From an uncultured Saprospiraceae bacterium (lineage in GTDB: Bacteria > Bacteroidota > Bacteroidia > Chitinophagales > Saprospiraceae), in NCBI GenBank assembly GCA_964508085.1, contig CAZDTI010000001.1:74-64073 (forward strand): DNA of 64,000 nucleotides, read 5' to 3'. Every line of letters begins with the position of its first letter. Within the stretch, counting starts at the first letter, position 1. The position numbers were made by a program, and so were the translations under genes. Below are positions 10,649 through 51,762 of this stretch, piece by piece. The notes under the pieces were generated by a model that saw only the letters and a list, made by a program, of their open reading frames with translations, ran no database searches and was not told where the DNA came from.

Positions 10649-10649
10649 A

Positions 10650-20409: not shown

Positions 20410-20610
20410 TTAATAGTTGTAATAGGTTGATTATTAGTACTTTAATAGCTCCCTAAATGTATAAATGTTAAAGAACTTAGGTATAAATTAAAAAACCTAG
20501 GAAAGAAAAAGGTGTTTTTTAATACCAAGTATTTGTTGATTTAGGTCATTTTTTGGAAAGAAAAAAGTTGCGACAAAAAAGAAAAGAGAAATAAAGGTAG
20601 CTTTGAGACC
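20410..20610. other. A/T-rich tract next to the iterons (candidate DNA-unwinding element)
   Basis: Runs such as GGAAAGAAAAAGG, GGAAAGAAAAAAG and CAAAAAAGAAAAGAGAAATAAAGG. No ORF. Confidence 0.4.
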
Positions 20611-27012: not shown

Positions 27013-30000
27013 TCATGTTTCAAGCAGGTTTAAAATTTTCTCTTCTACATATTGAGCGAGAGTAGATACCGTAGGAGATTTAAAAACTTGGCTTAAAGGG
27101 ATTTCCATCTCAAATGTTTCGCTGATTCTGGTAGTAATTTGAATAGCCATTAGTGATTCCCCTCCTAGATCAAAGAAGTTGTCATGGATTCCAATTTTAG
27201 AGATGTTAAAAATAGTTTGCCAAATTTCAACTATTAATTCTTCAATTTCTGTTTGAGGAGGAGTATATTCTATTTTCGTTTCAATTGGAAAGGCATGTAA
27301 GGCGCTTAGCGCCTTTCTATTTACTTTTCCGTTTGGAGATAAAGGAAGTTGCTCTAAGTGTCTAAAAAGGGATGGGATCATGTATCTGGGCAATTTTGAA
27401 GCTAAATAAGCTTGTAGCTTCGAAAGAAGTATAACGGAGGGAGAGGTAAAAAAGGCAACTAGGTTCTTAGAACCTAAATTATTGTCTACAGCGAGAACTA
27501 CACAGCTTGTGATGGAAGTGAAGGATACAACGTGCGTTTCAATCTCCCCCAGCTCAATTCGATGCCCGTTTATTTTTACCTGAAAATCAATCCGACCCAA
27601 AAATTCAGTAATCCCTTCTTCATTAATCCTAGCTAAGTCGCCGGTTCTATACATCTTAGTATTTGCCTCAAATGGGTTTGGAATAAATTTTTGATCCGTT
27701 AAATCTGGTTTATTCCAGTAGCCAGCAGCTAAACCAATACCACTTAAATAAAGCTCTCCAATGACTCCTTGAGGAACAGGGATTTGGTGGTCATTTAAGA
27801 TATAGGCATTCATATTATGGATAGGTAGCCCAATAGGAACTGTAGGCGTTTTGATAGTTGGTGTGAACTGATGATAAAGACAGCCTATAGTTGCTTCAGA
27901 AGGGCCGTATTCATCAAACATTAAGAGTTTCCCATTAAAAGCATTATAAACCTCTTGAGCTAAATCTGTATTCAATTCGTCTCCTGTAACAGACATTACT
28001 TTAATTTGGCTTTCCTCAAATGTTTTTCCTTTTAAAAAAATCAAATGAGCGGGAGTCAATTTTACGAAATCAACTTTATTATCTTCTATGACTTCTAATA
28101 TAGATATATCTATTGCCTGATCGACTTCTTGATAGACATGGATAGCTCCCCCCATGATTAAAGGAAGAAAAACAGCATTAGCCGTAATATCGAATCCAAT
28201 TGTTGTAAACAAAGGAATGGCTGGATCTGGACTAGTTATATAAGCCTGCTTTGTCCATTTAATATAACTTGACAATGCTTTATTCGTAATCATAACTCCT
28301 TTTGGATTTCCTGTAGAACCAGAGGTATATATGAGAAAAGCAATAGCGTTTAATGGAATAGACTTCGAGAGGTTTTCAGTAGGATAGTTGCTTAGGGTAG
28401 TTTGGGCTGTATCAATATGTAAAGTATTAATAGGAGACAATTCCATACAATCGGTAAGGCTACTATGGCTAATTAGTAGTTTTGCCTGGCTGTCTTTTAA
28501 TAGGTAGTAAACTCTTTCATTTGGGTAATTACTAGGAATCGGGATGTAAGTAGCTCCGGTTTTTAGAACGGCTAATACACTAATGATGTATTCTGGAGAA
28601 CGTTTTAAACAAATGGCCACTTGTGAACCAAGCCCTATCTCTTTTTCAGATAGATAGTGCGCCAACTGATTGGCCAGTTTGTTTAATTCTTGATAACTTA
28701 TGGATTTTTCTTTGAAAACGATACTAGTCTTCTTTGGGGTCTTTTGAACCTGTGTTTCGATCAGCTCTATTATACTACTTTCCTCTTCAGCAGTATTGTA
28801 TCGGTTCTTATTAAAATCGATAATCGTTTTTTGGAATTCTTGTGGCGTAATTATAGGAATAGCATTAATTGCTGCCTCTTTATCTTCTATGAAAGCATCT
28901 AATAAGGCTAAGAAATGTTTAGGAGCCGCTAACTGTTTTTCTTGGTCAAATACGCCGGTGTTTAAATCAAAGTATAACTGAATATCTCCAGAACGATCAA
29001 AATCATGAACTTGTAAACGCAAGTGGTGTGATGGATCGCAGTGCTCTGGGTGAATCCACTTAGAAGACATTGGAATTCCGTTGAAAGAGGAATAGTCCGC
29101 ATTTATATAATTGAAAAAAACATTAAAGCTACGGCTTAGTTCAGGAGAGGAAGTTCCAGGCTGGGCAAACCTTAAAAAACCATTACTTTCGATTTGGACT
29201 CTTTTTAAAAGAGATAGAAAACTTTCCCCTTGTTCAATTTGTGCAAATAAAGGAAATGTTTCAATGAATAATCCAATGGTCTTTTTGAAATCGTTACTTG
29301 GCCTATTGTGAGCTGGAGAACCCATGACTAAGCTCTCCTGATCACAAATTCTATACAAATACGCAAAAAGTGTAGTTGCAAAAATATTATATAAGGAAAG
29401 GTGTTGAGTCCAAGATCGAATGCCTTTTTCATTGGAGAGTTGACGAAGCTTATCGGATCGTTCTTTCCCTAGTTGTATCGTTATTCGTTTGGAGGCTGTT
29501 GTAGAAGTCTTAAGTTTTTTATTGTAGAGCAGTGGCATTGGAGGGCAGTCTGCCAGTTTATTCTTCCAGTAAGCTTCTGCCTTATTATTTTGAACAGTGT
29601 GCTCAAATAGTATGTAATCTCGGAAAGAGGGTAGAGGAGGTGCGAGGTTTATTTGGTCTTCAATGGAGAGCTTATAAAGTAAGGCTAATTCTTTATAAAT
29701 AACAGAAGTACTCCAGGCATCTGTTGTAAGGTGGTGTTGATTAAAGTACCAGATAAAATCTGTTTCTGATAATCGAATTAGAATACTATCGAATAAACAT
29801 TTTGAAAGGTCAAACATAATTTTTGTTTGATCTTTTACCCAGGATTCGTAGGCAGCCATTGGGGCTACTTCTTTCGAAAAATCTAAAAGAGCAGTTTCAT
29901 ATTCGAGGTTTTCCAATACTTTTTGAATAGGACTTCCATCTCGTACCTCAAATACGGTCCGCAAGGCATCGCTGCGTTCTACTAGTTTTTGAAAAGCATT

Positions 30001-30144
30001 ACGAAAATGATCAACATGAATTTCACCCTGAATATGAAATGTTAAAGCCATGTTATACATAGGGCTACTAACATCCATTTGCTGACCAATCCAAAGAAGT
30101 AACTGGCTTTGTGTTAATTTATGATGTGGATACAAAGTCTTCAT
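27013..30144 (-). CDS. non-ribosomal peptide synthetase, C-A-T module (NRPS-1)
   Basis: C domain: LTQSQLLLWIGQQMDVSSPMYN N-terminus and HHLTTDAWS (nt 29716-29742). A domain: LIYTSGSTGNPKGV, FDEYGPSEA, YRTGDLARI, GRIDFQVKINGHRIELGEIE, PNGKVNRKAL. T domain: FFDLGGESLMAIQ. A 4-bp overlap with the upstream carrier gene suggests translational coupling. Confidence 0.95.
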   Translation of the reverse strand: MKTLYPHHKLTQSQLLLWIGQQMDVSSPMYNMALTFHIQGEIHVDHFRNAFQKLVERSDALRTVFEVRDGSPIQKVLENLEYETALLDFSKEVAPMAAYESWVKDQTKIMFDLSKCLFDSILIRLSETDFIWYFNQHHLTTDAWSTSVIYKELALLYKLSIEDQINLAPPLPSFRDYILFEHTVQNNKAEAYWKNKLADCPPMPLLYNKKLKTSTTASKRITIQLGKERSDKLRQLSNEKGIRSWTQHLSLYNIFATTLFAYLYRICDQESLVMGSPAHNRPSNDFKKTIGLFIETFPLFAQIEQGESFLSLLKRVQIESNGFLRFAQPGTSSPELSRSFNVFFNYINADYSSFNGIPMSSKWIHPEHCDPSHHLRLQVHDFDRSGDIQLYFDLNTGVFDQEKQLAAPKHFLALLDAFIEDKEAAINAIPIITPQEFQKTIIDFNKNRYNTAEEESSIIELIETQVQKTPKKTSIVFKEKSISYQELNKLANQLAHYLSEKEIGLGSQVAICLKRSPEYIISVLAVLKTGATYIPIPSNYPNERVYYLLKDSQAKLLISHSSLTDCMELSPINTLHIDTAQTTLSNYPTENLSKSIPLNAIAFLIYTSGSTGNPKGVMITNKALSSYIKWTKQAYITSPDPAIPLFTTIGFDITANAVFLPLIMGGAIHVYQEVDQAIDISILEVIEDNKVDFVKLTPAHLIFLKGKTFEESQIKVMSVTGDELNTDLAQEVYNAFNGKLLMFDEYGPSEATIGCLYHQFTPTIKTPTVPIGLPIHNMNAYILNDHQIPVPQGVIGELYLSGIGLAAGYWNKPDLTDQKFIPNPFEANTKMYRTGDLARINEEGITEFLGRIDFQVKINGHRIELGEIETHVVSFTSITSCVVLAVDNNLGSKNLVAFFTSPSVILLSKLQAYLASKLPRYMIPSLFRHLEQLPLSPNGKVNRKALSALHAFPIETKIEYTPPQTEIEELIVEIWQTIFNISKIGIHDNFFDLGGESLMAIQITTRISETFEMEIPLSQVFKSPTVSTLAQYVEEKILNLLET

Positions 30145-30386
30145 GCGTTTAATTTACGTCTTTCAAGGTACTCTTGAATATGGCCTATAGTCATAAAATT
30201 TTCTATAGTCATATCTTGTGGGGGAATTAATAGTTCAAACTTATCTTCTATGAAAGTGATTAGTTTCATCATACTCATAGAGTCGACTAAACCACTTCCT
30301 AGTAGGTCATCTTCAGGAGAAAGCGCTATCTCGGTATCACCTCCTAATATTTGTTGTTGTATAAATTCAATAAGAAGATTACTCAT
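30141..30386 (-). CDS. stand-alone acyl/peptidyl carrier protein
   Basis: 81 aa. Phosphopantetheine attachment motif in LGSGLVDSMSMMKLI. Confidence 0.85.
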   Translation of the reverse strand: MSNLLIEFIQQQILGGDTEIALSPEDDLLGSGLVDSMSMMKLITFIEDKFELLIPPQDMTIENFMTIGHIQEYLERRKLNA

Positions 30387-30395
30387 AATTAAAAA

Positions 30396-31958
30396 TTAAT
30401 GGGCTTTTGCTATTAAGGCGTTATGATTTATTTTGCCAGCTGTTGTTCTTGGAATGGTATCGGTGAAAATAATTTTAGAGGGAATATTATACCAGGGTAA
30501 ATGGGTTTTAATATAGTTCTGTAGTGCTTTTTCAGGACTTTCTATCTCTGTTTTAAGTATGACAACAGCTTCAATTAATTTTCCAAAGTCGTCATCCTCC
30601 ACTCCATATGCTGCAACTTCTTTTACAGCTGAATGGCTCGTTATTATGTTTTCAATTTCATCCAATTCAACACGGTATCCTCTGGTTTTTATCTGTCGAT
30701 CTTTACGACCTAGAAATAAGAGTTGGCCCGCCGAATTAAGTTTTACAATGTCCCCGGTCCTATAAAATGTTTTCTCAAAGCCAGCGTCTTTATTTTGAAT
30801 GTAAAAACCTCGCTTAGTCAATTCAGGTTTACCCCAATATCCAGCCATCATGGTAGCTGTACATATTAATAATTCTCCAATGTCCCCTGCATTTACAAGC
30901 TGGTCAGCCTCGTCTACAATCATCATCTCCGTATTTTCCCAAACGACTCCAATAGGAATCGATTCCTCTATATTAGGAAGATCTTTTAAGTGATAGTAAG
31001 TGCATTGATTAACTTCGGCAGGGCCATAAACATTACTAAACGAACTATTAGGCCATGCTTCCATTAATTGACGAAGATGTTTGGTTGGAAAAGGTTCGCC
31101 GCCATATAATACCCACCGAAGGGAGCTTAAATTTCGCTCTTCTAACACCCCTAGTTGAAGTAATTGAGTTAAAGCTAAAGGTACGGAATACCAGACAGTT
31201 AGCTTCTCTTTTTCCATTAAAAGTGATAAGCTGGCGGGCATTTTAGTATAAGCCTCAGGTATGATAATAGTCGTGGCAGCTGCTAATGGAGCTGAAAAAT
31301 AACCGAAGGTAGAAATATCAAAATGGATGGGAGAATGATTTGCGATACGATCATGCTCCGTAATATTGTATAACTCTTTGGAAAGCATTGCATAGCTCAA
31401 TCCACTTCGATGCGTGTGCATAATACCTTTTGGGACTCCGGTAGTACCGGAGGTATAGATAATATAGGCTAAGTCTTTTTCTAAAATAGGACTTGACAAA
31501 AGGGGAGCTGTGTCGGGGTAGTTTTTAACAGCTTTCCAAGAAATTGTTTTTATAGGCAGTTCTTTTTCTACTCCGATAATAGAAAGGAGAGAAAGTGGTT
31601 CAGAGAGCAGATTGGCTAATTTTTTTTTTGATCTTGAGTTGGAGATAAGATGCTTTATTCCAGCTTCTTTTATTAGCTGTTGGTTTCTGGAACTTGGGGC
31701 TTTTACATCAAGGGGAACATAGGCAGCGCCAGCTCTTAAAATACCATGAATGGCTACAGCAGTTTCCAGCGATCTATCGAGGAAAATACCGATTCTATCT
31801 CCCTTCTCAACAGAAAGACCTCGCAATACATTTGCGAGTTGGTTGACTTGCTTATTTAGTGCAAGATAGGTGATTGACTGATCTAAAAATCGAAAAGCTT
31901 CTTTGTTAGGGAATAGCTTGGCGGATTCTTCAATTATATGACTTAAAAGGTAGATCAT
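30396..31958 (-). CDS. stand-alone adenylation (A) domain protein, amino-acid type
   Basis: 520 aa. Motifs IIYTSGTTGVPKGI, FDISTF (retains the alpha-amino-binding Asp), NVYGPAE, YRTGDIVKL, GRKDRQIKTRGYRVELDEIE and TAGKINHNAL. Confidence 0.85.
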   Translation of the reverse strand: MIYLLSHIIEESAKLFPNKEAFRFLDQSITYLALNKQVNQLANVLRGLSVEKGDRIGIFLDRSLETAVAIHGILRAGAAYVPLDVKAPSSRNQQLIKEAGIKHLISNSRSKKKLANLLSEPLSLLSIIGVEKELPIKTISWKAVKNYPDTAPLLSSPILEKDLAYIIYTSGTTGVPKGIMHTHRSGLSYAMLSKELYNITEHDRIANHSPIHFDISTFGYFSAPLAAATTIIIPEAYTKMPASLSLLMEKEKLTVWYSVPLALTQLLQLGVLEERNLSSLRWVLYGGEPFPTKHLRQLMEAWPNSSFSNVYGPAEVNQCTYYHLKDLPNIEESIPIGVVWENTEMMIVDEADQLVNAGDIGELLICTATMMAGYWGKPELTKRGFYIQNKDAGFEKTFYRTGDIVKLNSAGQLLFLGRKDRQIKTRGYRVELDEIENIITSHSAVKEVAAYGVEDDDFGKLIEAVVILKTEIESPEKALQNYIKTHLPWYNIPSKIIFTDTIPRTTAGKINHNALIAKAH

Positions 31959-31991
31959 TTGAGTTGAGTCTGTGAAAATTCTTTACTCTAG

Positions 31992-33143
31992 TTATAGTCC
32001 CAATAGGTTGGCTACTATATTGCGTTGTATATCGGAGGTACCTGCATAGAGTACGCCTCCTACGGCATCCCGTAAATCTCTTTCAATTCCAAGGTCAGTC
32101 AGATAACCATTTCCACCAAAACAGCGTATAGCATCCATACTGGAGTCAAGAAAACTTTCACTCAATTGAAGTTTCAAAAGTGCTGCTTCTAGCATTGCTG
32201 TTTGACCGGTTTGTTTTAGCCAAGCAACTTTGTATAATAACAACCTTGAGGTCTCCAGTCGCAATTTCATCTCTACAACTCTATTAGAAACAGATTGAAA
32301 TTTACCAATTGACTGTCCAAACTGTTTACGCTTGTTCACAAAAGAAACCGTATTTTCTAATTGACGCTCCATTGAACCCAATTGACTAGCAAGTATACTA
32401 CATCGTTCATATTCTAAGGAGTGATTTATCATACTGAAGCCAGCGCCCTCTCCCCCCAATCGATTCTCCTCAGGAACAAAGCAATTGTCAAAATTCAATT
32501 CTCCTTGGGGGATAGTTCTTAAACCCATTTTATCCCGATTAGGGCTTTGGCTAAGGCCATTCATTCCCTTTTCCACCAGAAACGCGGTAATGCCCCATTT
32601 TCCCAGCTTAGGATTTACATTTGCAAAAACAAGCGCTACATCTGCAATTGGAGCAAAAGTGACTAACCGTTTTTGACCATTTAAGATATATCCTTTGTCT
32701 GTTTTCTCGGCGGTCATCTCCATGTTAAAGACATCTGATCCGATGTTGGGCTCGGTTAAAGCATGTGCACCAATCCATTCGCCATTAACCATGGGAGGAA
32801 GGAATTTTTGTTTTTGTTCTTCTGTACCAAATTGAACAATAGGGAGCTGAACCGTCCACATTTGTGCATTCAGCCCAAAAGCTAAGGAGTTATCAAGACA
32901 ACCATAGCCCAATCCCTCTAAGGCGAGTACAGAACTTAATAAATCGACTTCGTCATGGCGTCCACCATATTTAGTGGTAGATGCCATTGCCTGAATTCCG
33001 AATTCCGCACATTTATTCCATAGATCTCTAGCGAAAATATTTTGTTTGTCTCTTGAGACTAAATCGTCATGTAACTCTTTTTTTGCGAAGGCGATAACCT
33101 TCTCTTTATATTGAATTTGTTCTGTTGACCAAGAAAAGTCCAT
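31992..33143 (-). CDS. acyl-CoA dehydrogenase-family flavoenzyme, probably acting on a carrier-bound substrate
   Basis: 383 aa. ACAD fold motifs (GAHALTEPNIGSD, FGQSIGKFQSVSNRVVEMKLRLE, GGNGY). Same operon as the A domain and carrier protein. Confidence 0.8.
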   Translation of the reverse strand: MDFSWSTEQIQYKEKVIAFAKKELHDDLVSRDKQNIFARDLWNKCAEFGIQAMASTTKYGGRHDEVDLLSSVLALEGLGYGCLDNSLAFGLNAQMWTVQLPIVQFGTEEQKQKFLPPMVNGEWIGAHALTEPNIGSDVFNMEMTAEKTDKGYILNGQKRLVTFAPIADVALVFANVNPKLGKWGITAFLVEKGMNGLSQSPNRDKMGLRTIPQGELNFDNCFVPEENRLGGEGAGFSMINHSLEYERCSILASQLGSMERQLENTVSFVNKRKQFGQSIGKFQSVSNRVVEMKLRLETSRLLLYKVAWLKQTGQTAMLEAALLKLQLSESFLDSSMDAIRCFGGNGYLTDLGIERDLRDAVGGVLYAGTSDIQRNIVANLLGL

Positions 33144-40234: not shown

Positions 40235-41341
40235 TTAGACCCTTGCTGAAATATCGATTGGTGCTTCCTTTGTAGTCGCCTTTACCTTATTCAAAAAGTT
40301 ATATGGCCCTTTAGCATCGCCAGAAATATTTTCAATGGCAATTTTTTGCCCTAAACCAAGATTTTGGGCATACTTCATAAATAGGTTTAAGACGACTTGA
40401 TCCTCTAGTGCCCAGCCAGTGGAATCAAAAACAGTACACTGTTCTTTTATGTGTTGGGATTGATCTTCGTCTTTAAGTAAATCTGTCAAATTAGCTCCTA
40501 CATCCTCAGAAGACAATTGCTGGCATTCTCCCTCTATTAATGCCTGTTCTAAAAAGTCGACACAAACGAAGCTCTTTTTCAAAAGCTCAAGGGGTAATTC
40601 TGTTTTACCGGGAAAATCAGAACCAACAGCATTTATATGTATATGTTTTTTAGATTCAATATTGGAAAATAATGGACCTTCATCAACTTCTATGGAAGTT
40701 GCCGTACATAAGATATCTGATGAGGAAACAATCTCAGCAATTGTACTCTTCACAATAGTAAGGTTCAAATCCAGACTTGAAATACGGTTTTCAAAAGAAT
40801 TTAAGATGCTTTCATCAATATCATAAATTAATACTTTTTTGATAGGAAATAGTCTTGCAATTCCATGGAGCTGTGTAATAGATTGTGCGCCACAACCAAT
40901 CAAACCAAGTACAGCGCTTTCTGGATGAGCCATTGCTTTTGTCGCAACTGCTGATGCCGCCGCTGTTCTTAGAGCCGTTGTTAAAACACCATCCATAATA
41001 ACCTCTAAGTGACCAGTAGCAGAATCATACGAAGAGATGGTAGAAATAATAGTAGGAAGGTTTTTTAAAATCGGATTATGTGGATGATAACCAACCACCT
41101 TTATAACGATTTGACCGCCATGTTGATATACAGGCATCCACTCAATTAAACCAGTTTGGGGATGCTCATAATTGAATCCAGATCTTGCAGGAATAGATAT
41201 GCTTTTAGAATCATATGCTTTTATAGCAGTGTATAGCTCCTTAATAAGTTCGTCCATTACATGGTTTATGCCATAGTGAAGGATTATGTTTTGGATATCA
41301 TCTTTGGATAAAACGAGTGTGTGGGTTTTTGATAATTTCAT
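40235..41341 (-). CDS. ornithine cyclodeaminase / mu-crystallin family enzyme
   Basis: 368 aa. Rossmann motif LGLIGCGAQSITQL. Family-typical TALRTAAASAVATK segment. Confidence 0.8.
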   Translation of the reverse strand: MKLSKTHTLVLSKDDIQNIILHYGINHVMDELIKELYTAIKAYDSKSISIPARSGFNYEHPQTGLIEWMPVYQHGGQIVIKVVGYHPHNPILKNLPTIISTISSYDSATGHLEVIMDGVLTTALRTAAASAVATKAMAHPESAVLGLIGCGAQSITQLHGIARLFPIKKVLIYDIDESILNSFENRISSLDLNLTIVKSTIAEIVSSSDILCTATSIEVDEGPLFSNIESKKHIHINAVGSDFPGKTELPLELLKKSFVCVDFLEQALIEGECQQLSSEDVGANLTDLLKDEDQSQHIKEQCTVFDSTGWALEDQVVLNLFMKYAQNLGLGQKIAIENISGDAKGPYNFLNKVKATTKEAPIDISARV

Positions 41342-41593: not shown

Positions 41594-43294
41594 ATGGCAA
41601 TATTAGAAGTTGTTGGTATCGCGTCCATTCTACCTTTCATGCACTTGGCTGCTAATCCTGATATGATTACAGAAAACGAGTGGCTTTTCTGGATTTATAA
41701 TCTTTTGGGTTTCGAGTCTTATACTTCCATGCTTATTTTTACAGGTGTGGCAATGTTGGTTTTTCTTACACTTGCAAATTTATTTAGAGCTTTCACAGCT
41801 TGGCTACAATATAAAGTAGCTTGGGATACTGCTCATAACATAAGCTCGAGATTGTTTCACGCTTATCTTAAACGACCATACAGTTTTTTTTTAAACAAGA
41901 ATTCTTCTGACTTGCAAGCAAAAATCGTGATGGAAGTTGGGCAGGTCTGCACCAGTATTTTAATTCCTTTAGGAGAAATAATAGCGCGATCACTAGTCGT
42001 ACTTGTAATATTCTGTTTATTACTTTACTTCGATGCCAAAACCGCTTTAATTATTGTAGGTGTTCTTGGTTCAGGTTATACCATTGCTTTTTTATTACGG
42101 AAAGGACTGCTGGAAAAATTAGGAGAGGATCGAATTCAAGTCAATCTTGCACGTTTCCGCAGCATGGCAGAAGCATTAACTGGTATTAAAACAACAAAAG
42201 TTTATCAGGCAAAGGATTATTTCTTTGATCGTTTTGAAACGGCATCAAAAAGATATAGCGAGATCCAACCTCGTGTTCAAGTTATATCTATTATTCCCAA
42301 ATCTCTTATTGAGATAATTGCCTTCGGAGGCATCATTGGCGTAATGATTTATCTTATTGCCATTGGGAATGATTTGCAAAGTGCATTACCTATGCTCAGT
42401 TTATTTGCAGTTTCCGGTTATAGGCTATTACCTTCACTTCAAATACTTTTTATGGCCGCAACAAAAGTTCGACATACCTTGCCAGTGCTTGATTCTATTT
42501 ATGATGATTTAACGTATCAACTTTCTGAAAAGCAAAAAGAGCAAAGTGAAATTATTATTCCGGAATTTGAAAAAGCCATTACAATAGATGTTGAAGCGTT
42601 TTATTATGAAGGAAGTGATCAAATAATTCTGAAAAATCTAAACCTAGAGCTAAGAAAAGGACAAACAATTGCTTTTGTCGGATCAACAGGATCAGGGAAA
42701 TCTACTATAATCGACCTTTTAGTTGGTTTAATTGATTTGGAAAAAGGTCATGTTCTAATTGATGAAGTGCCCTTAAGTACTTCAAACGCTGACGGTTGGT
42801 TCAATCAAATTGGATATGTTCAACAAGATGTTTTCCTATTTGATGAATCCATAAAAAGAAATATTGCAATAGGAGTACCTTTAGAAGAGATAGATATGGA
42901 TCGGTTGATCTTCGCTTCTCAACAAGCTAACATCTATGATTTTATTATTTCGGAATTACCAGAAGGTTACGAAACAAGAGTAGGGGAAAGAGGCGTTCGT
43001 CTGAGTGGTGGACAGTTACAAAGAATCGGAATAGCCAGAGCCTTATACCGAAATCCTAAAGTCTTGATTTTAGATGAAGCAACAAGTGCTTTGGATGGAG
43101 TAACAGAGAGTAAAGTTATAGAATCACTAAAGGAATTATCAATAACGATGATCATTATTGCTCATCGGCTATCTACAATTAAACATGTTGATTACATCTA
43201 CCTTTTAGAGGAAGGGAAGGTTGTTGCAAAAGGTTCTTACGAAGAACTAGTAACAAACAATACCATATTCAGAGAAATGGTAGAATTTTCTTAG
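41594..43294 (+). CDS. ABC exporter, fused TMD-NBD (MsbA-like); the true start is probably upstream
   Basis: Walker A GSTGSGKST. Signature LSGGQLQR. Walker B ILILDEATSALD. Six TM helices. The frame stays open upstream to 41513 and encodes the missing half of TM1. Confidence 0.85.
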   Translation: MAILEVVGIASILPFMHLAANPDMITENEWLFWIYNLLGFESYTSMLIFTGVAMLVFLTLANLFRAFTAWLQYKVAWDTAHNISSRLFHAYLKRPYSFFLNKNSSDLQAKIVMEVGQVCTSILIPLGEIIARSLVVLVIFCLLLYFDAKTALIIVGVLGSGYTIAFLLRKGLLEKLGEDRIQVNLARFRSMAEALTGIKTTKVYQAKDYFFDRFETASKRYSEIQPRVQVISIIPKSLIEIIAFGGIIGVMIYLIAIGNDLQSALPMLSLFAVSGYRLLPSLQILFMAATKVRHTLPVLDSIYDDLTYQLSEKQKEQSEIIIPEFEKAITIDVEAFYYEGSDQIILKNLNLELRKGQTIAFVGSTGSGKSTIIDLLVGLIDLEKGHVLIDEVPLSTSNADGWFNQIGYVQQDVFLFDESIKRNIAIGVPLEEIDMDRLIFASQQANIYDFIISELPEGYETRVGERGVRLSGGQLQRIGIARALYRNPKVLILDEATSALDGVTESKVIESLKELSITMIIIAHRLSTIKHVDYIYLLEEGKVVAKGSYEELVTNNTIFREMVEFS

Positions 43295-43313: not shown

Positions 43314-44597
43314 ATGAAAAAGCACACACACCTTCTTCTTATACTTTGTATAATATTTATGGCTATCCCAAAATGGTCCAATGGGCATGCACCTGATCAG
43401 AGCTACATCTTTCTGAAAGTCTTTGAAAATTCTATTAGTGGCCTCGTAGAATTAGAAGTTGATGATGTGAATAATGCATTGGGCTTAGAATTGAAAAAAG
43501 GGATTACTCCAGAAGAGTTAGAACCTTATGCTGATCAGATAAAAGGATATATTTTAGAACGACTTGCTTTTAGCACAGGAGGTAAAGACATAAGTATTAG
43601 CTTCACTGAAATTGGTTCATTGGAGTTAGAACTAGGAACTTACTGCCAATTTAGATTCGACTTGGAAGGGTTGTCTACGGTTCCGGATGATATTGATGTA
43701 AAATACAACGCAGTATTTGATAATGATCCCAAGCATCAGGGGATGCTCGTCATAGAGTACAATTGGAAAGCCGGTATTATGAATAATGAAGCTTTAGTTT
43801 CTTTAGTATTCTCTTCTTCCAATACCAAACAAAACTTAGACTTAACAGACGGCTCTCTATTAAAAGGTTTCTTAACCATGATCTGGTTGGGGATATGGCA
43901 TATTTTCATCGGAACAGATCATATTTTATTTTTGCTTGCCTTATTATTGCCAGCTGTAGTTTATCGATTTCAAAACGATGACAATGTGGAGCGGCATTAT
44001 GAATCGGTTACCTTACCAGGGTTTGGAACCTTCAATAACTGGAACCCAGTCGGAAAATTTAAGCCAGCAGTGCTATATGTTTTAGTAATTGTCAGCTTTT
44101 TTACTATTTCTCATTGCATAACGCTAACCTTAGCAGCATTCGAAATTGTTGTGCTTCCATCAAGGCTCGTGGAATCTATAATCGCAATCTCCATCGCATT
44201 GGCTGCAATTCATAATATTCGACCCCTGTTCAAAAGAGACTGGCTGATCGCTTTTGGTTTCGGTTTTTTCCACGGTTTTGGTTTTGCAAGCGTTCTGGGG
44301 GATATCGGTTTAAAAGGAGAATACATGGCCCTCTCTTTGTTGGGCTTTAATATTGGTGTTGAGCTGGGACAAATTGTCATTATTTGTATTTTCTTCCCAA
44401 TATTATACCTTTTGAAAGACTCAAAAAATTACTCAAAAATATTGGTATATGGGTCTGTTTTGCTAATCCTGATTTCCTTATACTGGTTTGTTGAAAGAGC
44501 CTTTGACTACGACATGCCAATAGATGATTTCATAAGTGATTTTATTGATAGAGTAATCAAAAAAATTAAAATGCTGATGGGAATTGAAATAAAGTAG
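43314..44597 (+). CDS. HupE/UreJ-family metal permease fused to a ~190-aa N-terminal periplasmic domain
   Basis: Signal peptide followed by GHAPDQS. HxxxGxDH signature in WHIFIGTDHILFLLALLLP. Later motif FGFFHGFGFASVLG. Confidence 0.65.
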   Translation: MKKHTHLLLILCIIFMAIPKWSNGHAPDQSYIFLKVFENSISGLVELEVDDVNNALGLELKKGITPEELEPYADQIKGYILERLAFSTGGKDISISFTEIGSLELELGTYCQFRFDLEGLSTVPDDIDVKYNAVFDNDPKHQGMLVIEYNWKAGIMNNEALVSLVFSSSNTKQNLDLTDGSLLKGFLTMIWLGIWHIFIGTDHILFLLALLLPAVVYRFQNDDNVERHYESVTLPGFGTFNNWNPVGKFKPAVLYVLVIVSFFTISHCITLTLAAFEIVVLPSRLVESIIAISIALAAIHNIRPLFKRDWLIAFGFGFFHGFGFASVLGDIGLKGEYMALSLLGFNIGVELGQIVIICIFFPILYLLKDSKNYSKILVYGSVLLILISLYWFVERAFDYDMPIDDFISDFIDRVIKKIKMLMGIEIK

Positions 44598-44653: not shown

Positions 44654-47600
44654 ATGTCAAAATTTGAGAAGAGCAATGACTTGCTTAAACGATGGCGCAG
44701 TCGAAATAAAAATACTGGGGTAGAGAGGAAGGAAAAAGGGATAAACATTTCTTCAAAACCAACGGAATCACCAGCCCTACTATCCTCTGGGCAACAGCGA
44801 CTGTGGTTTTTACAAGAACTATTCTCAGATAATCCTTTTTACCACTATGCCGACGTCTATACCTTAAAAGGAAAACTCAATGAAGCTATTTTAATTAAAA
44901 GCTTTGAGTTTGTTGTACAAAGACATTCGATCCTTAGAACTACCTTTCATTTTGAAGGAGAAAGCTGTACACAAAGAATCCACGAGAAAGCGGTTTTTGA
45001 TTATGGCTTCATCGATTTAAGCCAAGATTCAGAGGGCTCGAAAGAACAAAAATCAGATGCCCTCCTTAGAGAAAAAGCACAGGTTTTCTTCGACCTGACT
45101 GAGGGGCCACTCCTCCGAGTAACTCTGGTTAAAATGACGGAACTCAAACACAAGTTGGCAATCACCATGCACCATATTGTTACCGATAAATGGTCAATGA
45201 AAATTCTACGAGAAGAACTTGCTTTCGCTTACAATGAATTTTCTGATGGAAGAAAACCATCTCTGAATCCTCTTCCTTTTCAATACGAAGACTACGCGTA
45301 CTGGCAACAAGGTAAAACCATTGACCCGCTACAAATAGCTTATTGGAGGGATAAGTTAAAGGACTGTAGTCCCAACATTAAATTGTTTCATCAAAACCAA
45401 CCTAGAAAAGAAACAACTTACAAAGGAGCTTTCCTCAGCCAAAAATTCACACCGGACTTATCGGAAAAACTGAAAAATTTAAGCGCTAAAACGAATACAA
45501 CTTTATTCGTTTTACTGCTCACTATTTATAAGCTGTTACTTCACCGCTATTCCGGACAAGAGGACATCTTAGTTGGTACGCCATTTACAAATAGAAATCA
45601 AAGTGTCCTTGAAAAGCTAATTGGTTTCTTCAACGATACCTTAGTTCTTCGATCTGACTTCAGTGGAGAGCTTACCTTTACTGAATTATTAAAAGAGATT
45701 CGGCAAACTGTATTAGATGCTTTTACCAACAAAGATGTACCCTTCGAAACAATAGTCGATACTATAAAACCTGAGCGATACCTCAGCTCAAATCCATTAT
45801 TTCAAGTCATGTTCTTATTCCATAAAGTCCCAGAAAATCCCAAAATGGGACAGGGAATAGAAATCGAATACGAACCCTTTGATATTGGCATTTGTAAATT
45901 TGATCTGACCTTATATATTGCTGAAGCTAAAGATCATATTTCAGCGACTATCGAGTACTCTTTGGACTTGTTTGATGAACCCACTATCCAAAGAATGCAA
46001 GGTCATTTTCTACATTTATTGGAACAAGTCATTGAAAACCCAAATCAGAAAATATCAGAACTTCAACTGATTACAGCAGCGGAAAGAAGCCAGCAATTAA
46101 AAAATTGGAACAGTACGCGAATCGAGAAATCTGAGGTCGTAGCCATTCATCATTTCTTTGAAAAGTATGCAAAAGCAACACCTGAGGCTACAGCATTAAA
46201 ATTCTTAGATCAATCGTATTCTTACAAAGAGCTTGACGAAAAGGCCTCTTATATTGCAAAAGGATTGGTGGCTGCCGGTGTTGGCTCTAACATTCCTGTT
46301 GGGATATGTGCAGAAAGATCAATGGAAATGATTGTAGGTGTACTGGCCATATTAAAAGCTGGAGGAGTTTATTTACCAATTGACCCCGAATATCCCTCCG
46401 AAAGGATCACCTTTATGCTGGAGCAAGCAGAAGTGCCTTTTGTACTAACGCAAGTAGACCAAACAGAGAATTTTCTAGACAACAATACAGAAATTCTTAC
46501 ATTCCAAGAATTGTATGACGCGGTTTATGACGATAGTACTCTAGTAATTACTGAAGAAAATAAACCTTCAGATCTTGCATACATTATATACACTTCTGGA
46601 AGTGTTGGCAAACCAAAAGCAGTCGCTGTTAGCCATGAGAATATTGTGCATTCTACCAGCGCACGGTTTTCATATTACGATGATCAACCCAAGTCTTTTT
46701 TACTGTTATCTTCTTTTGCTTTTGATAGTTCGATGGTAGGTATTTTTTGGACACTCTGCTCTGGTGGAACTTTAGTTATTGCTGAGAAGAAAGTAGAACA
46801 GAATATGCAAGACTTGAGTAGCCTGTTTTCAAAGTATCAAACAACTCATACTTTATTACTACCTTCTCTATACGCATTGTTACTGGAGCAAGGTGTGAAA
46901 AAAGAGCTAGCAAGTTTAAACACAGTTATTGTAGCTGGAGAAGAATGCACAAGTCGGTTGTGCAGCCATCATTTTGAGCGCCTTCCAGCGGTTAAACTCT
47001 ACAATGAATATGGGCCAACAGAGGCAAGTGTCTGGTGTACTGCGCATCGAATAACTAAGGAAGATGTAGAGAGCCCCGTTCCTATAGGTCGCCCAATTCC
47101 TAATATGGAAATTTTTATCCTGGACAAAAATATGTCCTTAGTTCCCATTGGAGTTGTAGGAGAACTTTATGTAGGAGGCGTTGGTGTAACAAAAGGATAT
47201 TTAAATAGGCCAGATTTGACAGAAGAGCGCTTTTTGAACCATCCTTTTAATAATGGAAGTAAGAATAAGGTATATAAAACAGGAGATTTAGCAGTCTATC
47301 GGCCTGATGGTCTTATTGACTTTTTAGGCCGTGTAGACCATCAGGTAAAAATTAGAGGACATCGAATTGAGTTGGCAGAAATTCAAAAAACAATGCTTTT
47401 ACACCCTGCGATAGATGATGTTGTTGTAATGTTGTTAAAGCAAAAACAGGATCAAGGATATACCACAAAACGAATAGGAGCATATTATACTATAAATAAA
47501 GATTTGGAATCTAAGGAATTGAAAGGTTTCATTAAATCTCGTCTACCGGCTTACATGTTACCTGCGGCTTTTTTTCAACTTCCAAAGTTTCCGAAACTTC

Positions 47601-49342
47601 CGAATGGAAAATTAGACGTGAAAGCCCTTAATCAATTTCAAGAAAATGAAATAACAAGTGCAGATAGCTTTGTGGAAGCAAGAACTGATTTGGAACGAGA
47701 CCTAACAAATATTTGGGAAGAAGTCTTGAATGTAAAACCAATAGGGATTTATGATAATTTCTTTGAAATAGGAGGAGACTCTATTCTTAGTATTCAGATT
47801 AACGGTAGAGCGAGAAAGAAAGGGATTCATATATCCCCTAATCTATTATTTGAAAATCAAACCATTGCATCACTTTCAAGTGCAATAACACTTAATGAAG
47901 AAAATCTTCTTCAAGAAAAAAAGGAAAAAGAATACCTCAGTGCTGTACCTGTTCTGACTCCTATACAACATTGGTATTTTGAAACTCACCGTAATGCACC
48001 AGCACATTGGAACTTGGGATTACGATTTCAACCTTCAACCAGTATTTCGACAGACTTATTAAAAATTGCGATCCAGAAACTGATAGAACGACACGATGCT
48101 TTACGCATGGCTTTTAACGTCGATGAGAATGGTATTTGGAAACCAATGCTGCTAGATGTTCAAGGAGAAAATGTCTTTAGTATAATAGAAATATCTGTAA
48201 AGGGAGAAAAAGACGCCAACAATATAATTACAAGTCATATTCAAAAACAGAGTGAATCCTTTGCTCTTTCAGAAGGCAATTTATTTCAATGCGTTTATTT
48301 CAAATGTGAAAATGAATTAAAAGATCAAATATTACTTTTAGCACATCATCTTGTGTTGGATAATGTTTCTTGGAGTATAATTACACAGGATTTAGAAACA
48401 TTACTCGACCAACTATCAAAGAAAGAAAAGCCCAAATTAACTCCTTCAACTATTCCCTATAGTTTATGGAGCAATAAACTGGTAAGCATTGCGAATTCGG
48501 GTAAGTTAACAGTGGATTATAATTATTGGAAAAAGACAGCGGCCTGCTCGACGGATGAATTCCCTACTGATTTTGAAAAGTCAATGCCAGTCCTTGAAAA
48601 AAGTATTAATTATAGTACTTTTCGACTAGAAGCTGATTATACAGAACTATTGTTACAAAAGGTGCCTAAGCATAAAAGTATCCGTATTAATGAATTGTTA
48701 CTTTGTGGAATGATGATGGCTCTGAAAGATTGGAATAACATCAAGAGACTTCGTGTTGAAATGGAGGGTCATGGTAGAGAGTCACTTTTTGATGATTCTA
48801 CCTTTTTTAGCTCTGTAGGCTGGTTTACCGCTATATTTCCCGTCTTGCTGGAGTTAAACGAATCACTTGAAGTAGAGGATAATCTTAAACAGATTAAAGA
48901 GCAAGTTCGGAATGTTCCTAACAAGGGTATCACATATGGAATGCTTCGGTACCTAAGTGAATCTGAAGAAGTTCGAATGGATTTGTCTTGTACGACATCT
49001 GTTCTATTTAATTATTTAGGAGTGGAAAATGAATCAGGAAAGCGTATTTTAGGGAAGGGAAAAACAGTAGTAGAGGAGGCTCGCTCTCCATCAGGCGAAA
49101 GATACCATTGTCTTGAACTGAACATAAAAGTGCAAGATATGATTTTGGAAGTTAGTTGTGCTTACAGTAAAAGTCTATATCATCAAAATACAATTGATTC
49201 TTTCATGGATGAATATCAAAAGAATTTAATCAAATTGATTGACCATTGCATCTCTTCGGAAAAACAATCCTACACGCCTTCTGATTTTCCAGAGGCTGAT
49301 ATAAGCCAAGGTGATCTTGACGCTTTACTTGGTCAGTTATAA
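44654..49342 (+). CDS. non-ribosomal peptide synthetase, C-A-T-E module (NRPS-2)
   Basis: LCL-type C domain (LSSGQQRLWFLQEL; HHIVTDKWS at nt 45170). A domain (IIYTSGSVGKPKAV, AFDSS, NEYGPTEA, YKTGDLAVY, GRVDHQVKIRGHRIELAEIQ, PNGKLDVKAL). T domain (FFEIGGDSILSIQ). E domain (PIQHWYF, HHLVLDNVSW, EGHGRE, FNYLG). Confidence 0.95.
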   Translation: MSKFEKSNDLLKRWRSRNKNTGVERKEKGINISSKPTESPALLSSGQQRLWFLQELFSDNPFYHYADVYTLKGKLNEAILIKSFEFVVQRHSILRTTFHFEGESCTQRIHEKAVFDYGFIDLSQDSEGSKEQKSDALLREKAQVFFDLTEGPLLRVTLVKMTELKHKLAITMHHIVTDKWSMKILREELAFAYNEFSDGRKPSLNPLPFQYEDYAYWQQGKTIDPLQIAYWRDKLKDCSPNIKLFHQNQPRKETTYKGAFLSQKFTPDLSEKLKNLSAKTNTTLFVLLLTIYKLLLHRYSGQEDILVGTPFTNRNQSVLEKLIGFFNDTLVLRSDFSGELTFTELLKEIRQTVLDAFTNKDVPFETIVDTIKPERYLSSNPLFQVMFLFHKVPENPKMGQGIEIEYEPFDIGICKFDLTLYIAEAKDHISATIEYSLDLFDEPTIQRMQGHFLHLLEQVIENPNQKISELQLITAAERSQQLKNWNSTRIEKSEVVAIHHFFEKYAKATPEATALKFLDQSYSYKELDEKASYIAKGLVAAGVGSNIPVGICAERSMEMIVGVLAILKAGGVYLPIDPEYPSERITFMLEQAEVPFVLTQVDQTENFLDNNTEILTFQELYDAVYDDSTLVITEENKPSDLAYIIYTSGSVGKPKAVAVSHENIVHSTSARFSYYDDQPKSFLLLSSFAFDSSMVGIFWTLCSGGTLVIAEKKVEQNMQDLSSLFSKYQTTHTLLLPSLYALLLEQGVKKELASLNTVIVAGEECTSRLCSHHFERLPAVKLYNEYGPTEASVWCTAHRITKEDVESPVPIGRPIPNMEIFILDKNMSLVPIGVVGELYVGGVGVTKGYLNRPDLTEERFLNHPFNNGSKNKVYKTGDLAVYRPDGLIDFLGRVDHQVKIRGHRIELAEIQKTMLLHPAIDDVVVMLLKQKQDQGYTTKRIGAYYTINKDLESKELKGFIKSRLPAYMLPAAFFQLPKFPKLPNGKLDVKALNQFQENEITSADSFVEARTDLERDLTNIWEEVLNVKPIGIYDNFFEIGGDSILSIQINGRARKKGIHISPNLLFENQTIASLSSAITLNEENLLQEKKEKEYLSAVPVLTPIQHWYFETHRNAPAHWNLGLRFQPSTSISTDLLKIAIQKLIERHDALRMAFNVDENGIWKPMLLDVQGENVFSIIEISVKGEKDANNIITSHIQKQSESFALSEGNLFQCVYFKCENELKDQILLLAHHLVLDNVSWSIITQDLETLLDQLSKKEKPKLTPSTIPYSLWSNKLVSIANSGKLTVDYNYWKKTAACSTDEFPTDFEKSMPVLEKSINYSTFRLEADYTELLLQKVPKHKSIRINELLLCGMMMALKDWNNIKRLRVEMEGHGRESLFDDSTFFSSVGWFTAIFPVLLELNESLEVEDNLKQIKEQVRNVPNKGITYGMLRYLSESEEVRMDLSCTTSVLFNYLGVENESGKRILGKGKTVVEEARSPSGERYHCLELNIKVQDMILEVSCAYSKSLYHQNTIDSFMDEYQKNLIKLIDHCISSEKQSYTPSDFPEADISQGDLDALLGQL

Positions 49343-49347: not shown

Positions 49348-51762
49348 ATGCAGATTATGAAAAGTGCAAAGATAGAAGCCATACTACCATTAAATTTTTT
49401 ACAGCGAGCTTTACTCTTCCACAGTTTATTGGGACAAAAAGATCAGGGGTTTCTCCATGTTACTTCCACATTCAAAGGAGTATTGAATAAAGATTTTTTT
49501 CAAAAGTCTTTGAATGAGATAGTTAGACGACATGAGGTTTTACGTACTTCCATTCACTGGAAAGAAATTAAGAGTCCACTTCAGGTGGTACACCCTTCCG
49601 GAACGATCAAATGTATTTTCGAAGATTGGACAGATTTGGATAGTAAGGTACAAAATCAAAAGCTAATTGAGTTCAGGGAAGCTGACGAGAAGAAGGGCTT
49701 GGATTTATCAAAAAAACCAGTAACCAGAATCGTTATTTTTCAATTGAAATCAGAAGAGTATCTAATGTTGTGGACCTGTCACCACATCTTATTAGATGGC
49801 TGGTCTGCTTCTAATATTATTAAAGACCTATTTGCATATTATGACGGATGGAGTAGGGGGGAAGCAGTAAAACTTAATCCAATACCAAAATATAAAGATT
49901 ATCTGAAAGAATTGGATGGTTTTGATTTTAGTGCAAGCCAATCTTTTTGGTCTGAAACCATGGCAGATTTTAATTCGCCCACATTAATTAACAATGAGAC
50001 TACAAATGTCTTAGATAGGAAACCTAATCTAGAAAAGGAATCTGTAATTCTTGATGCCCCTAATTTTCAAATACTAAAAAAACTCGCCCGCCAGAATCGA
50101 GTCACATTGAATTCTTTAATTCAAGGACTTTGGGCTTTATTACTCGCCAAACTCGCTCATCAACATGATGTCGTTTTTGGAACCACTGTTTCTATTCGAT
50201 CAGATAAATTGAATAATGCTGAAGAGATGGCGGGTCTTTTTGTAAATATGATTCCTGTGCGTGTCCAAGTAAAAGAGGATATACATTTATTTGAGTGGTT
50301 AAAGACAATTCAACAACAACAGCTTCAGATTCGAAATCACCATTACGTCTCTCTCGATCAAATCATTTCTTGGATGAATTGGCCTGGCTTCAAACCACTT
50401 TTTGATACCCTTCTTGTCGTCGAAAACTTCCCATGGAAAAATATTCAAAGTGGTGGGATAGAAGTAATAGACTTTGAAGGGGGAATTACCTCCACTTACC
50501 CTTTAACCATTATGGTTAAACCACTCGAGGAACTTGAATTTACACTACTTTACGATACTAATTTAGTTGGAAAGGAATCTATAGATTGGATTTTGAAGAA
50601 CATAATGGTTCAATTTACAGAAATCATAAGAAATGGAGATTTAAAAGTTTCGTCTTTATTAGAGCAAATATCTCCTCCAACCTTCACAAATAAAGAAAAA
50701 GAGCCAAAGGTTAGTATGGAAATAAATTCATTAAATTTCCGATCTGATTATTTGCCTCCGGAGAATAAACTGGAATTAGAATTAACTAAAATATGGGAAG
50801 AAATATTTGGCTTTTCCCCAATAGGAGTTAATGATAACTTCTTCGAAATAGGGGGTAAATCAATACTAGCAGTCCAATTATTTGCACAAATTGAGCGTAA
50901 ATTAGGTTATAATCTTTCTCCAATTACTTTATTACAACATACTAGTATAAAGGCTATTAGTACAATTATAAAGAGTGATAGTGCAGTGCTTCATTGGAAG
51001 TCATTGGTGCCTATCAATATTCAAGGAGAAAAGCCGCCACTCTTCTGCCTTCATGCAAAGGGCGGTCACGTATTTTTTTACAATGCTCTAGCGAAACATT
51101 TAGGAGACGATCAGCCCGTTTATGCTTTGCAACCAAAGGGATTAGATGGAGTGGAACCATTATATGAGAGTATCGAAGAAATGGCCACACATTATCTAAC
51201 CGAAATTAAAACAATTCAGCCTAATGGTCCTTATGCTTTGTTGGCTACTTGCTTTAGCAATGCAGTGGGGCTTGAAATGGCGCAACAGCTTCATAACCAA
51301 GGAGAAAAAGTATCTATTTTGGCCATGGTCGATGCTTCTCCTGGAATATTACAAGAACACATCCCTGATCCCTTACCTAAGTGGAAAAGGGTAGTACAAG
51401 TCTTAAAAAAAGATGGTCTGGAATCGACTGGTAAGAAGGTAATTCAAAAGCTGGAAAATTCTTTTAAAAAGAAGAGTGATGAGAAAAAATCGAAACAAGA
51501 ATTGGCACTTATAAAAGTGCAAGAAAAATTAGATTTCATTTTTAGAAAATATAGAAGAAAGGCATATGAAGGGAAAGTGACTTTAATTAGGAGTAGTGAG
51601 TTTGAGGAAAGGTCCGATAAAGTTTTTCATGTTGAAGAGTGGGAAGAAATCTCTACGCAGCCTTTAGAAATCATAGTTGTTCCAGGGCACCATCAAAGCC
51701 TATTTTTAGAACCAGAAGTCATAGGGCTAGCTAAAGGTTTAGCTCAATGCCTACCTAAATAA
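49348..51762 (+). CDS. non-ribosomal peptide synthetase termination module C-T-TE with no A domain (NRPS-3)
   Basis: C domain (LPLNFLQRALLFH; CHHILLDGWS). Only ~30 aa separate it from the T domain (FFEIGGKSILAVQ). TE domain (LFCLHAKGGHVFFY, GPYALLATCFSNAVGLEMA, MVDASP, VPGHHQSLF). Confidence 0.9.
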   Translation: MQIMKSAKIEAILPLNFLQRALLFHSLLGQKDQGFLHVTSTFKGVLNKDFFQKSLNEIVRRHEVLRTSIHWKEIKSPLQVVHPSGTIKCIFEDWTDLDSKVQNQKLIEFREADEKKGLDLSKKPVTRIVIFQLKSEEYLMLWTCHHILLDGWSASNIIKDLFAYYDGWSRGEAVKLNPIPKYKDYLKELDGFDFSASQSFWSETMADFNSPTLINNETTNVLDRKPNLEKESVILDAPNFQILKKLARQNRVTLNSLIQGLWALLLAKLAHQHDVVFGTTVSIRSDKLNNAEEMAGLFVNMIPVRVQVKEDIHLFEWLKTIQQQQLQIRNHHYVSLDQIISWMNWPGFKPLFDTLLVVENFPWKNIQSGGIEVIDFEGGITSTYPLTIMVKPLEELEFTLLYDTNLVGKESIDWILKNIMVQFTEIIRNGDLKVSSLLEQISPPTFTNKEKEPKVSMEINSLNFRSDYLPPENKLELELTKIWEEIFGFSPIGVNDNFFEIGGKSILAVQLFAQIERKLGYNLSPITLLQHTSIKAISTIIKSDSAVLHWKSLVPINIQGEKPPLFCLHAKGGHVFFYNALAKHLGDDQPVYALQPKGLDGVEPLYESIEEMATHYLTEIKTIQPNGPYALLATCFSNAVGLEMAQQLHNQGEKVSILAMVDASPGILQEHIPDPLPKWKRVVQVLKKDGLESTGKKVIQKLENSFKKKSDEKKSKQELALIKVQEKLDFIFRKYRRKAYEGKVTLIRSSEFEERSDKVFHVEEWEEISTQPLEIIVVPGHHQSLFLEPEVIGLAKGLAQCLPK

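Follow-up and report, generated by a model that had tools for sequence, protein, structure and literature searches.

The DNA analyzed here, referred to throughout as the window, is a stretch of 64,000 nucleotides from an uncultured Saprospiraceae bacterium (contig CAZDTI010000001.1 of assembly GCA_964508085.1, positions 74 to 64,073 of the forward strand). Its plus strand encodes a nonribosomal peptide synthetase (NRPS) termination protein composed of condensation (C), carrier (thiolation, T) and thioesterase (TE) domains and devoid of an adenylation (A) domain. How the carrier of this protein is loaded, and how the TE releases the product, are the subjects of this report. The protein and its domains were delimited as follows:

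49348..51762, plus strand: NRPS termination protein C-T-TE, 804 amino acids (aa), without an A domain (open reading frame (ORF), translation and Pfam)
49378..50658, plus strand: condensation domain C3, aa 11-437 (Pfam Condensation, E 4.5e-81)
50659..50781, plus strand: C-to-T linker of 41 aa (aa 438-478, from the Pfam boundaries), in place of the usual A domain of about 500 aa
50782..50964, plus strand: carrier domain T3, also termed peptidyl carrier protein (PCP), aa 479-539 (Pfam PP-binding)
51034..51702, plus strand: type I thioesterase domain, aa 563-785 (Pfam Thioesterase, E 9e-19)

An earlier examination of the letters alone (the sequence-only reading) had held that there was no room for an A domain between C and T and that such a module must be loaded in trans. 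Both points were upheld, although the gap, which it had put at about 30 residues, measures 41. An AMP-binding domain was not found by Pfam in the 804-aa ORF, which gives no sign of a cryptic A domain there, and the linker is far too short to accommodate one. In the whole window just three A domains were found by tblastn with a homologous C-A protein, the totals being three A domains and four carrier domains. The remaining parts of the module appear intact. The catalytic motif of C3, HHILLDG, lies at 49780-49800 (HHILLDGWS, aa 145-153), and its residues H145, H146, D150 and G151 were invariant across the aligned family. The phosphopantetheine site of T3 is Ser505 of GGKS (TCA, 50860-50862), invariant in 40 homologues, and the TE domain, which scored 69 bits against PF00975 (cut-off 26.4), follows directly C-terminal to the PP-binding domain at 479-539. 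Across the family, HHxxxDG of C3, Ser505 of T3 and the triad residues of the TE vary little or not at all. The C-T-TE architecture was shared by all 120 listed homologues (about 800 aa), those with a taxon name being mostly Bacteroidota. The protein thus has the make-up of an orphan-carrier module, with C and T, no A domain between them, and both the His motif and the phosphopantetheine serine intact. As the module lacks an A domain, T3 must be charged by one located elsewhere. The N-terminal motif of C3 is IEAILPLNFLQRALLFH, the domain starting KIEAILPL...LLFH, and this is presumably of the type that accepts a D-configured donor (DCL).

The upstream gene of the same strand encodes a complete module ending in an epimerization (E) domain:

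44654..49342, plus strand: upstream NRPS protein C2-A2-T2-E2 (Pfam)
46157-47611, plus strand: A2, the proposed loader of T2 and T3, with the His-type code DSVLIAEVWK

Stachelhaus codes were extracted by alignment to a GrsA PheA reference, which was itself verified by its own established code. DSALIAEVWK is a published signature of His activation (PMC12283262), and in related loci the upstream A domain carried DSALIAEVWK, DSAMIAEVWK or close variants. A His-type code stood upstream of the A-less C-T-TE in 17 of the 17 loci with a readable upstream A domain, and the constant partner of the A-less module was an upstream C-A-T, with or without E. The neighborhoods of homologous loci (given here by L numbers) were inspected for about 10 kb on each side. 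In L003, L086, L087 and L088 the His-type A domain was the sole A domain within 10 kb either way, and in L001 it was the sole one in the 10 kb upstream and the readable downstream stretch. Sister loci (among them L067, L101, L134 and L150) have the HupE-linked His module fused straight to the same Cys TE, with no extra C-T, which makes the extra C-T of the window look like a His position added without an A domain. A precedent for such economy is provided by yersiniabactin, in which one A domain, that of HMWP2, serves PCP1 and PCP2 in cis as well as PCP3, on HMWP1, in trans (PMC9547227). The best reading of the codes, the neighborhoods and this analogy is that A2 would charge both T2 and T3, and the last residue is accordingly predicted as His. 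The upstream protein ends in the tail TPSDFPEADISQGDLDALLGQL, which resembles a COM docking helix. At the level of sequence, this tail and the start of C3 would fit a direct hand-over of a D-configured donor from E2 to C3.

The two other A domains of the window lie in an operon on the opposite strand, one of which had been put forward in the sequence-only reading as the trans-acting loader of T3. This accessory operon of four genes includes an acyl-CoA dehydrogenase (ACAD) homologue:

27013..33143, minus strand: accessory operon, four genes (Pfam, NCBIfam)
31992-33143, minus strand: prolyl-carrier-protein dehydrogenase-like ACAD (NCBIfam, PDB 4irn)
30396-31958, minus strand: stand-alone A domain, 520 aa (Pfam, PDB 6o6e)
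30141-30386, minus strand: PCP, 81 aa (Pfam/NCBIfam)
27013-30144, minus strand: C-A-T module (Pfam/NCBIfam)

The best NCBIfam models for the ACAD were the prolyl-PCP dehydrogenases PigA and RedW, and its best PDB match was the prolyl-acyl carrier protein (ACP) dehydrogenase AnaB (4irn; 430 bits, E 8e-128). Among stand-alone adenylating enzymes, the best PDB match of the A domain, which carries the code DIFPVYVQCK, was the prolyl ligase PltF (6o6e). The code of the C-A-T module, DINKSTEIGK, had no recognized match. To judge from these similarities, the starter made by the cassette is probably a dehydroprolyl or pyrrolyl unit, to which the C-A-T module would add one residue. It recurs in L089 (62, 58 and 49% identity) and was not found in the inspected neighborhoods of L001, L003, L086, L087 and L088, all of which have the A-less C-T-TE; L004 keeps the A-less C-T-TE with only one further NRPS module upstream. 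With an ACAD-A-PCP operon of its own, and missing as a cassette from most homologous loci, the 30396-31958 protein is not supported as the loader of T3.

The TE domain was the second point of interest, as its nucleophile elbow reads A-T-C-F-S. The triad was assigned to Cys635 (TGC, 51250-51252), Asp662 (51331-51333) and His782 (51691-51693), the last being the second His of VPGHH; Asp662 and His782 are invariant in the aligned family sequences. The TE region was compared with the PDB sequences by phmmer, matches being listed to E<=1. GPYALLATCFS aligned without gaps to GPYHLLGWSLGS of 7crn, in which the column of Cys635 holds Ser, and a deposited mutant, 7dxo, has Ala at exactly this column. 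Cys635 aligned likewise to the elbow Ser of NocB (GGWSFGG) and to the Cys of AB3403 (4zxh, GGWCFGG). In a family alignment of 121 sequences (120 database homologues and the query), column 635 held Cys in 110 and Ser in 11, and column 637 held Ser in 99, Gly in 20 and Asn in 2; the family motif at the nucleophile is Tyr or Thr, then Cys, then Phe (Thr-Cys-Phe in the window). In an AlphaFold model of the TE (mean predicted local distance difference test (pLDDT) score 87), Cys635 falls at the turn from strand 82-87 to helix 90-103, whose first residue is Ser637; Asp662 follows directly on strand 108-114, and His782 comes after strand 227-231. The predicted TE lid (aa 667-735, about 120-170 of the model, pLDDT 55-72) is strongly lysine-rich: KKDGLESTGKKVIQKLENSFKKKSDEKKSKQE.

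Since column 635 is only ever Cys or Ser, it was recognized as the nucleophile position, and since column 637 tolerates Gly, it was read as a small residue at Nu+2 and not as the nucleophile. Alignments and model together confirmed Cys635, not Ser637, as the nucleophile, in agreement with the placement first given to it at the elbow. The two reservations attached to that placement were that Ser637 might serve instead if the local alignment shifted, C-F-S-N-A being formally readable as Sm-x-Ser-x-Sm, and that TGC might be a base-call error. The first is opposed by the Gly and Asn seen at column 637, by the gap-free alignments of several solved TEs, which put the nucleophile on Cys635, and by the position of Cys635 at the strand-helix turn of the model. 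The second is excluded by the presence of Cys at column 635 in more than 100 independent assemblies. Together they can be given practically no weight.

Although the sequence-only reading regarded Cys NRPS thioesterases as rare, Cys proved to be the majority state within this TE lineage. The eleven homologues with Ser carry canonical GxSxGG elbows. One of them, L089, the member whose surroundings were readable, lies in a window-like cluster, in which ACAD-A-PCP-CAT is divergent from HupE-C-A-T-C-T-TE-PPTase (PPTase, phosphopantetheinyl transferase), and its upstream A domain has the same code as the window type. The QPxGPY..CF[ST] elbow was sought in metagenomes with a DNA pattern specific to it, which gave 65 loci; in 16 of them domain annotation shows an A-less C-T ahead of the Cys TE, and in 18 a complete A-T. 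The complete C-A-T-TE(Cys) modules had His-type codes and also Val, Pro, Asn-like and Lys-like ones, which shows that Cys is not tied to A-lessness. In a generic NRPS sample, biased to relatives of the query, Cys was found in 6 of 26 readable TE domains. A link between the Cys TE and an upstream E domain was also considered and was ruled out by L067, L142, L144 and L145, which have Cys without E. A scan of genome contigs with the family alignment and generic C and T motifs listed mostly unrelated NRPS loci, L036, L067, L070 and L072 being the useful ones among the matches listed. L036, from an uncultured Actinomycetes metagenome-assembled genome, encodes at 5089-12391 a C-A with code DSACIAEVWK, a T-containing ORF and a C-T-TE with a GFCFGG elbow, and the system is therefore not confined to Bacteroidota. 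As judged by sequence, Cys is a lineage-wide majority state of this TE clade, with no link to A-lessness, histidine or any one release chemistry.

The cysteine had been taken earlier as a hint of strained-ring release like that of ObiF and SulM. In the TEs of SulM and ObiF1 a Cys nucleophile is combined with a catalytic Asp that has moved to the loop after beta7 (position II), and further marks of SulM are a Gln-Cys-Asn motif, a pocket of positive charge and a last A domain specific for 2,3-diaminopropionate (Dap) (PMC11298585). AB3403, the sole other solved NRPS TE with Cys, has its Asp after beta6 (position I) (PMC11298585). Asp662 aligned by phmmer with the position-I Asp of AB3403 and 7crn and lies after strand beta6 in the model, and the family consensus shows no conserved residue after the next strand, where a position-II Asp would be. 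The Gln-Cys-Asn motif is not present around Cys635, Thr-Cys-Phe standing in its place. The earlier suggestion of comparing the TE with those of ObiF and SulM brought no support for the likeness: neither SulM nor ObiF1 was in the phmmer PDB list for the TE query at E<=1, ObiF1 (6n8e) being present in the sequence set searched, where it was matched by an A-domain query, and neither was among the Foldseek top 50 for the TE model. The Foldseek list was led by Skyxy-TE (7crn), AB3403, the NocB TE and EntF; AB3403 ranked second among the PDB sequence matches (E 7e-19) and fourth in Foldseek. Nor was there an A domain for Dap or a beta-hydroxy amino acid in the last module, which has no A domain of its own and whose constant companion A domain has a His-type code. 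The position-I Asp, the differing motif and the structural neighbors identify the TE as an AB3403-like Cys thioesterase and not a SulM/ObiF-like one. The cysteine TE is best taken as an ordinary variant and not as a sign of strained-ring chemistry, and release would proceed by ordinary hydrolysis or cyclization and not by beta-lactam or beta-lactone formation.

Several other accounts of how T3 is charged were weighed against loading by A2. It was conceivable that the Cys TE itself acts as an aminoacyl shuttle, carrying His from T2 as a thioester on Cys635 to T3 and afterwards also releasing the chain. Aminoacyltransferases of the alpha/beta-hydrolase fold that serve A-less C-T modules do exist, namely LgnA, SyrC, CmaE and a proposed case in WS9326A biosynthesis (PMC8748450, PMC3039948). 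A thioester-to-thioester transfer would moreover account for the preference for Cys. The nucleophile of SyrC and CmaE is a Cys. However, the known shuttles are stand-alone proteins, whereas the TE of the window is fused to C-T, and the minimal clusters (those with a single His-type A domain) have no separate A-T protein. Furthermore, the same 'CFS' Cys TE ends complete modules (18 loci) about as often as A-less ones (16), the former including modules with Val, Pro, Asn-like and Lys-like codes, and a Ser subclade of the C-T-TE family exists, L089 having the same cluster type. Cys TEs on complete modules and the Ser subclade together argue that Cys is a lineage trait unlinked to A-lessness, and the shuttle is considered quite improbable.

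It was also possible that T3 is charged by a source other than A2, such as an A domain elsewhere in the genome, that its amino acid is a different one, or that C3-T3 is skipped or used iteratively. In favor of this, the inspected span of the homologous loci was just some 10 kb per side, and the minimal clusters contain three elements that loading by A2 leaves unaccounted for, an ornithine cyclodeaminase/mu-crystallin (OCD) family enzyme, a protein of about 540 aa without a Pfam match, and a first C domain without a donor. Against it, the His-type protein is the one A-containing gene product found with the module throughout, the conserved C3 motif, Ser505 and triad of the TE suggest that the module works, and the window contains neither the ~540-aa protein nor the methyltransferase of related clusters. 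We regard such a source, or such a use of C3-T3, as improbable. Very improbable, in our judgment, is the combined model of the sequence-only reading, in which the 30396-31958 A domain loads T3 in trans and the Cys TE releases a strained ring. The Cys nucleophile and the occurrence in the window of both a stand-alone A domain and a sulfotransferase gene (37162-37860) speak for it. That A domain is, however, flanked by its own 81-aa PCP and by the prolyl-ACP-dehydrogenase-like ACAD, and most of the homologous loci that keep the A-less module lack the cassette. The TE has a position-I Asp and no Gln-Cys-Asn motif, there is no Dap-type A domain, SulM and ObiF1 lie outside its sequence and fold neighbors, Ser-type family members exist, and the sulfotransferase has no counterpart in 13 related genome loci or 65 metagenome loci.

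Loading by A2 was therefore retained as the preferred account. We think it rather probable, with room for doubt, that the C-T-TE protein forms the last, A-less module of an NRPS core of two proteins conserved across Bacteroidota, in which one His-type A domain loads both T2 and T3. In this scheme, A2 would charge T2 in cis and T3 (Ser505) in trans with His, E2 would epimerize the T2-bound residue, and the DCL-type C3 would join the D-His-terminated chain to L-His on T3. The TE would then take the chain onto Cys635, helped by His782 and by Asp662 in its canonical position after beta6, and would free it by ordinary hydrolysis or cyclization. In the window, the chain would probably start with a proline-derived unit from the ACAD-A-PCP genes, followed by one residue from the C-A-T module. 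Several observations weigh against this scheme. The specificity read from the A2 code is a prediction, and one position of that code departs from the published one for His; the DCL-type motif of C3 persists where the E domain is lacking; neither the conserved OCD-family enzyme nor the donor for the first C domain of minimal clusters is accounted for; and, the loader survey having covered about 10 kb on either side, a more distant loader may exist. More tentatively, and with a probability that we would put below even, one His-specific A domain, two carriers and two proteins may yield a D-His-L-His C-terminus, and the conserved gene set (HupE_UreJ_2 membrane protein, OCD enzyme, C-A-T-E, C-T-TE(Cys) and PPTase) may be the core of an undescribed family of His-rich, possibly metal-binding peptides, widespread in Bacteroidota and with relatives in Actinomycetes and Acidobacteria. 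A description of the cluster family or its product was not found in the literature searched, including a Bacteroidetes genome-mining paper (PMC9248904).

The genes around the two NRPS proteins, and a putative origin region elsewhere in the window, were annotated as follows:

43314..44597, plus strand: HupE_UreJ_2 membrane protein (Pfam), next to the His-type NRPS in 14 related loci
41594..43294, plus strand: ABC transporter, membrane and ATPase parts, first gene of the plus-strand operon (Pfam)
40235..41341, minus strand: ornithine cyclodeaminase/mu-crystallin (OCD) enzyme (Pfam, NCBIfam)
37921-40107, minus strand: 728-aa protein with a type IX secretion system (T9SS) sorting tail
37162-37860, minus strand: Sulfotransfer_4 protein (Pfam)
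35755-37140: macrolide-type glycosyltransferase, between the two NRPS operons
18483-19835, minus strand: Rep3-family initiator
16411-17061, minus strand: ParA-like ATPase

The ABC transporter has orthologues in L001, L088, L142 and L145. The OCD enzyme is 56-58% identical to its orthologues in L001, L003, L086 and L087 and is kept in the cluster family. It usually accompanies HupE_UreJ_2, neither having an obvious role in a His-only assembly line; the HupE_UreJ_2 link hints at metal handling. A role of the OCD enzyme as proline supplier for the prolyl-dehydrogenase cassette was considered and rejected for want of co-occurrence, because L089 carries the cassette and lacks OCD within 10 kb, and in the minimal loci OCD occurs without the cassette. 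The sulfotransferase, the SbnB-like OCD enzyme and the Cys TE together had suggested a sulfazecin-like monobactam cluster, which was ruled out by the His-type instead of a Dap code, the position-I Asp, the missing Gln-Cys-Asn motif and the lack of conservation of the Sulfotransfer_4 gene among the related loci. The Sulfotransfer_4 gene and that of the 728-aa protein, like the glycosyltransferase gene, are located between the two NRPS operons. The glycosyltransferase recurs in L067, L070, L119, L137 and L140, sometimes between the C-A-T-E and C-T-TE genes.

In L003 (4313-9995), L004, L085, L086, L087 and L088 the His-type module is distributed over three ORFs with translational coupling, which encode C-Acore, a stand-alone methyltransferase (PF27704) and Asub-T-E. 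This split form amounts to an interrupted A domain spread over separate polypeptides, the window having an uninterrupted single protein. The first C domain of L003, L086 and L087 has the LCL-type motif GQQRLWFLQQL, and no upstream carrier or donor module was found within 10 kb of it. In the same three loci the protein of about 540 aa without a Pfam match precedes the OCD gene. In the window itself, iteron-like repeats of 20-23 bp (GATGTAnnnCTACGnTTTAT) form short tandem arrays at 20063-20414, upstream of the Rep3 gene, and the cumulative GC skew of the window has its minimum at about 18-20 kb. The region 16411-20414 resembles a replication origin of the iteron type, and the NRPS cluster may therefore be carried by a plasmid or secondary replicon.

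If the proposed loading scheme is true, these loci form a natural cluster series for one A domain serving two carriers across a protein boundary, with contrasts in the extra C-T, the E domain and the Cys or Ser of the TE, and would be of relevance to NRPS engineering. The conserved, uncharacterized Bacteroidota cluster family with its predicted His-His terminus would then also be a target for product discovery. On this reading, a Cys nucleophile in an NRPS TE does not by itself predict beta-lactam or beta-lactone chemistry, and the position of the catalytic Asp and the neighboring motif need to be checked before a strained ring is predicted.

Among characterized assembly lines, the closest likeness in loading is to yersiniabactin, whose HMWP1 (Cy3-PCP3-TE; Cy, cyclization domain) likewise has an A-less terminal module on a separate protein; there, an A domain on the protein upstream charges the carrier in trans, with the same amino acid as in its cis loading (PMC9547227), which is the logic proposed here. 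Yersiniabactin differs in its Cy domains, its use of cysteine and its polyketide synthase (PKS) parts, whereas in the window the C domain is DCL-type, the code is His-type, an E domain is present and the TE has Cys; moreover, trans-loading has been shown experimentally for HMWP1, whereas for T3 we only infer it. Module 9 of SyrE, with SyrB1 and SyrC, and the legonmycin proteins LgnA/LgnB also resemble the window in having an A-less C-T(-TE) whose carrier is filled from another carrier (PMC3039948, PMC8748450), but these systems need a dedicated A-T protein and a stand-alone aminoacyltransferase, and the minimal clusters here encode neither.

With regard to release, SulM and ObiF1 share the Cys nucleophile with the TE of the window and differ from it in their position-II Asp and their Dap or beta-hydroxy last residue, and SulM also in its Gln-Cys-Asn motif and in-trans N-sulfonation (PMC11298585). 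Skyxy-TE (7crn; E 6e-26, Foldseek rank 1) and the NocB TE (6ojc; E 1e-12, Foldseek rank 5) have the same triad layout as the window TE but use Ser instead of Cys. Both are bifunctional, Skyxy-TE epimerizing and cyclizing (title of the 7crn entry) and the NocB TE epimerizing and hydrolyzing (PMC11298585). AB3403 (4zxh), a C-A-T-TE protein of Acinetobacter baumannii, has, like the window TE, a type I TE with a Cys nucleophile and a position-I Asp; it differs in its own A domain, in its elbow (G-W-C-F-G as opposed to A-T-C-F-S) and in that its product is uncharacterized. Its gene cluster also includes an acyl ligase, an ACAD, an ACP and a PPTase. The parts of the system in the window are all of known kinds, A-less terminal modules being represented by HMWP1 and SyrE and the Cys TE with a position-I Asp by AB3403.

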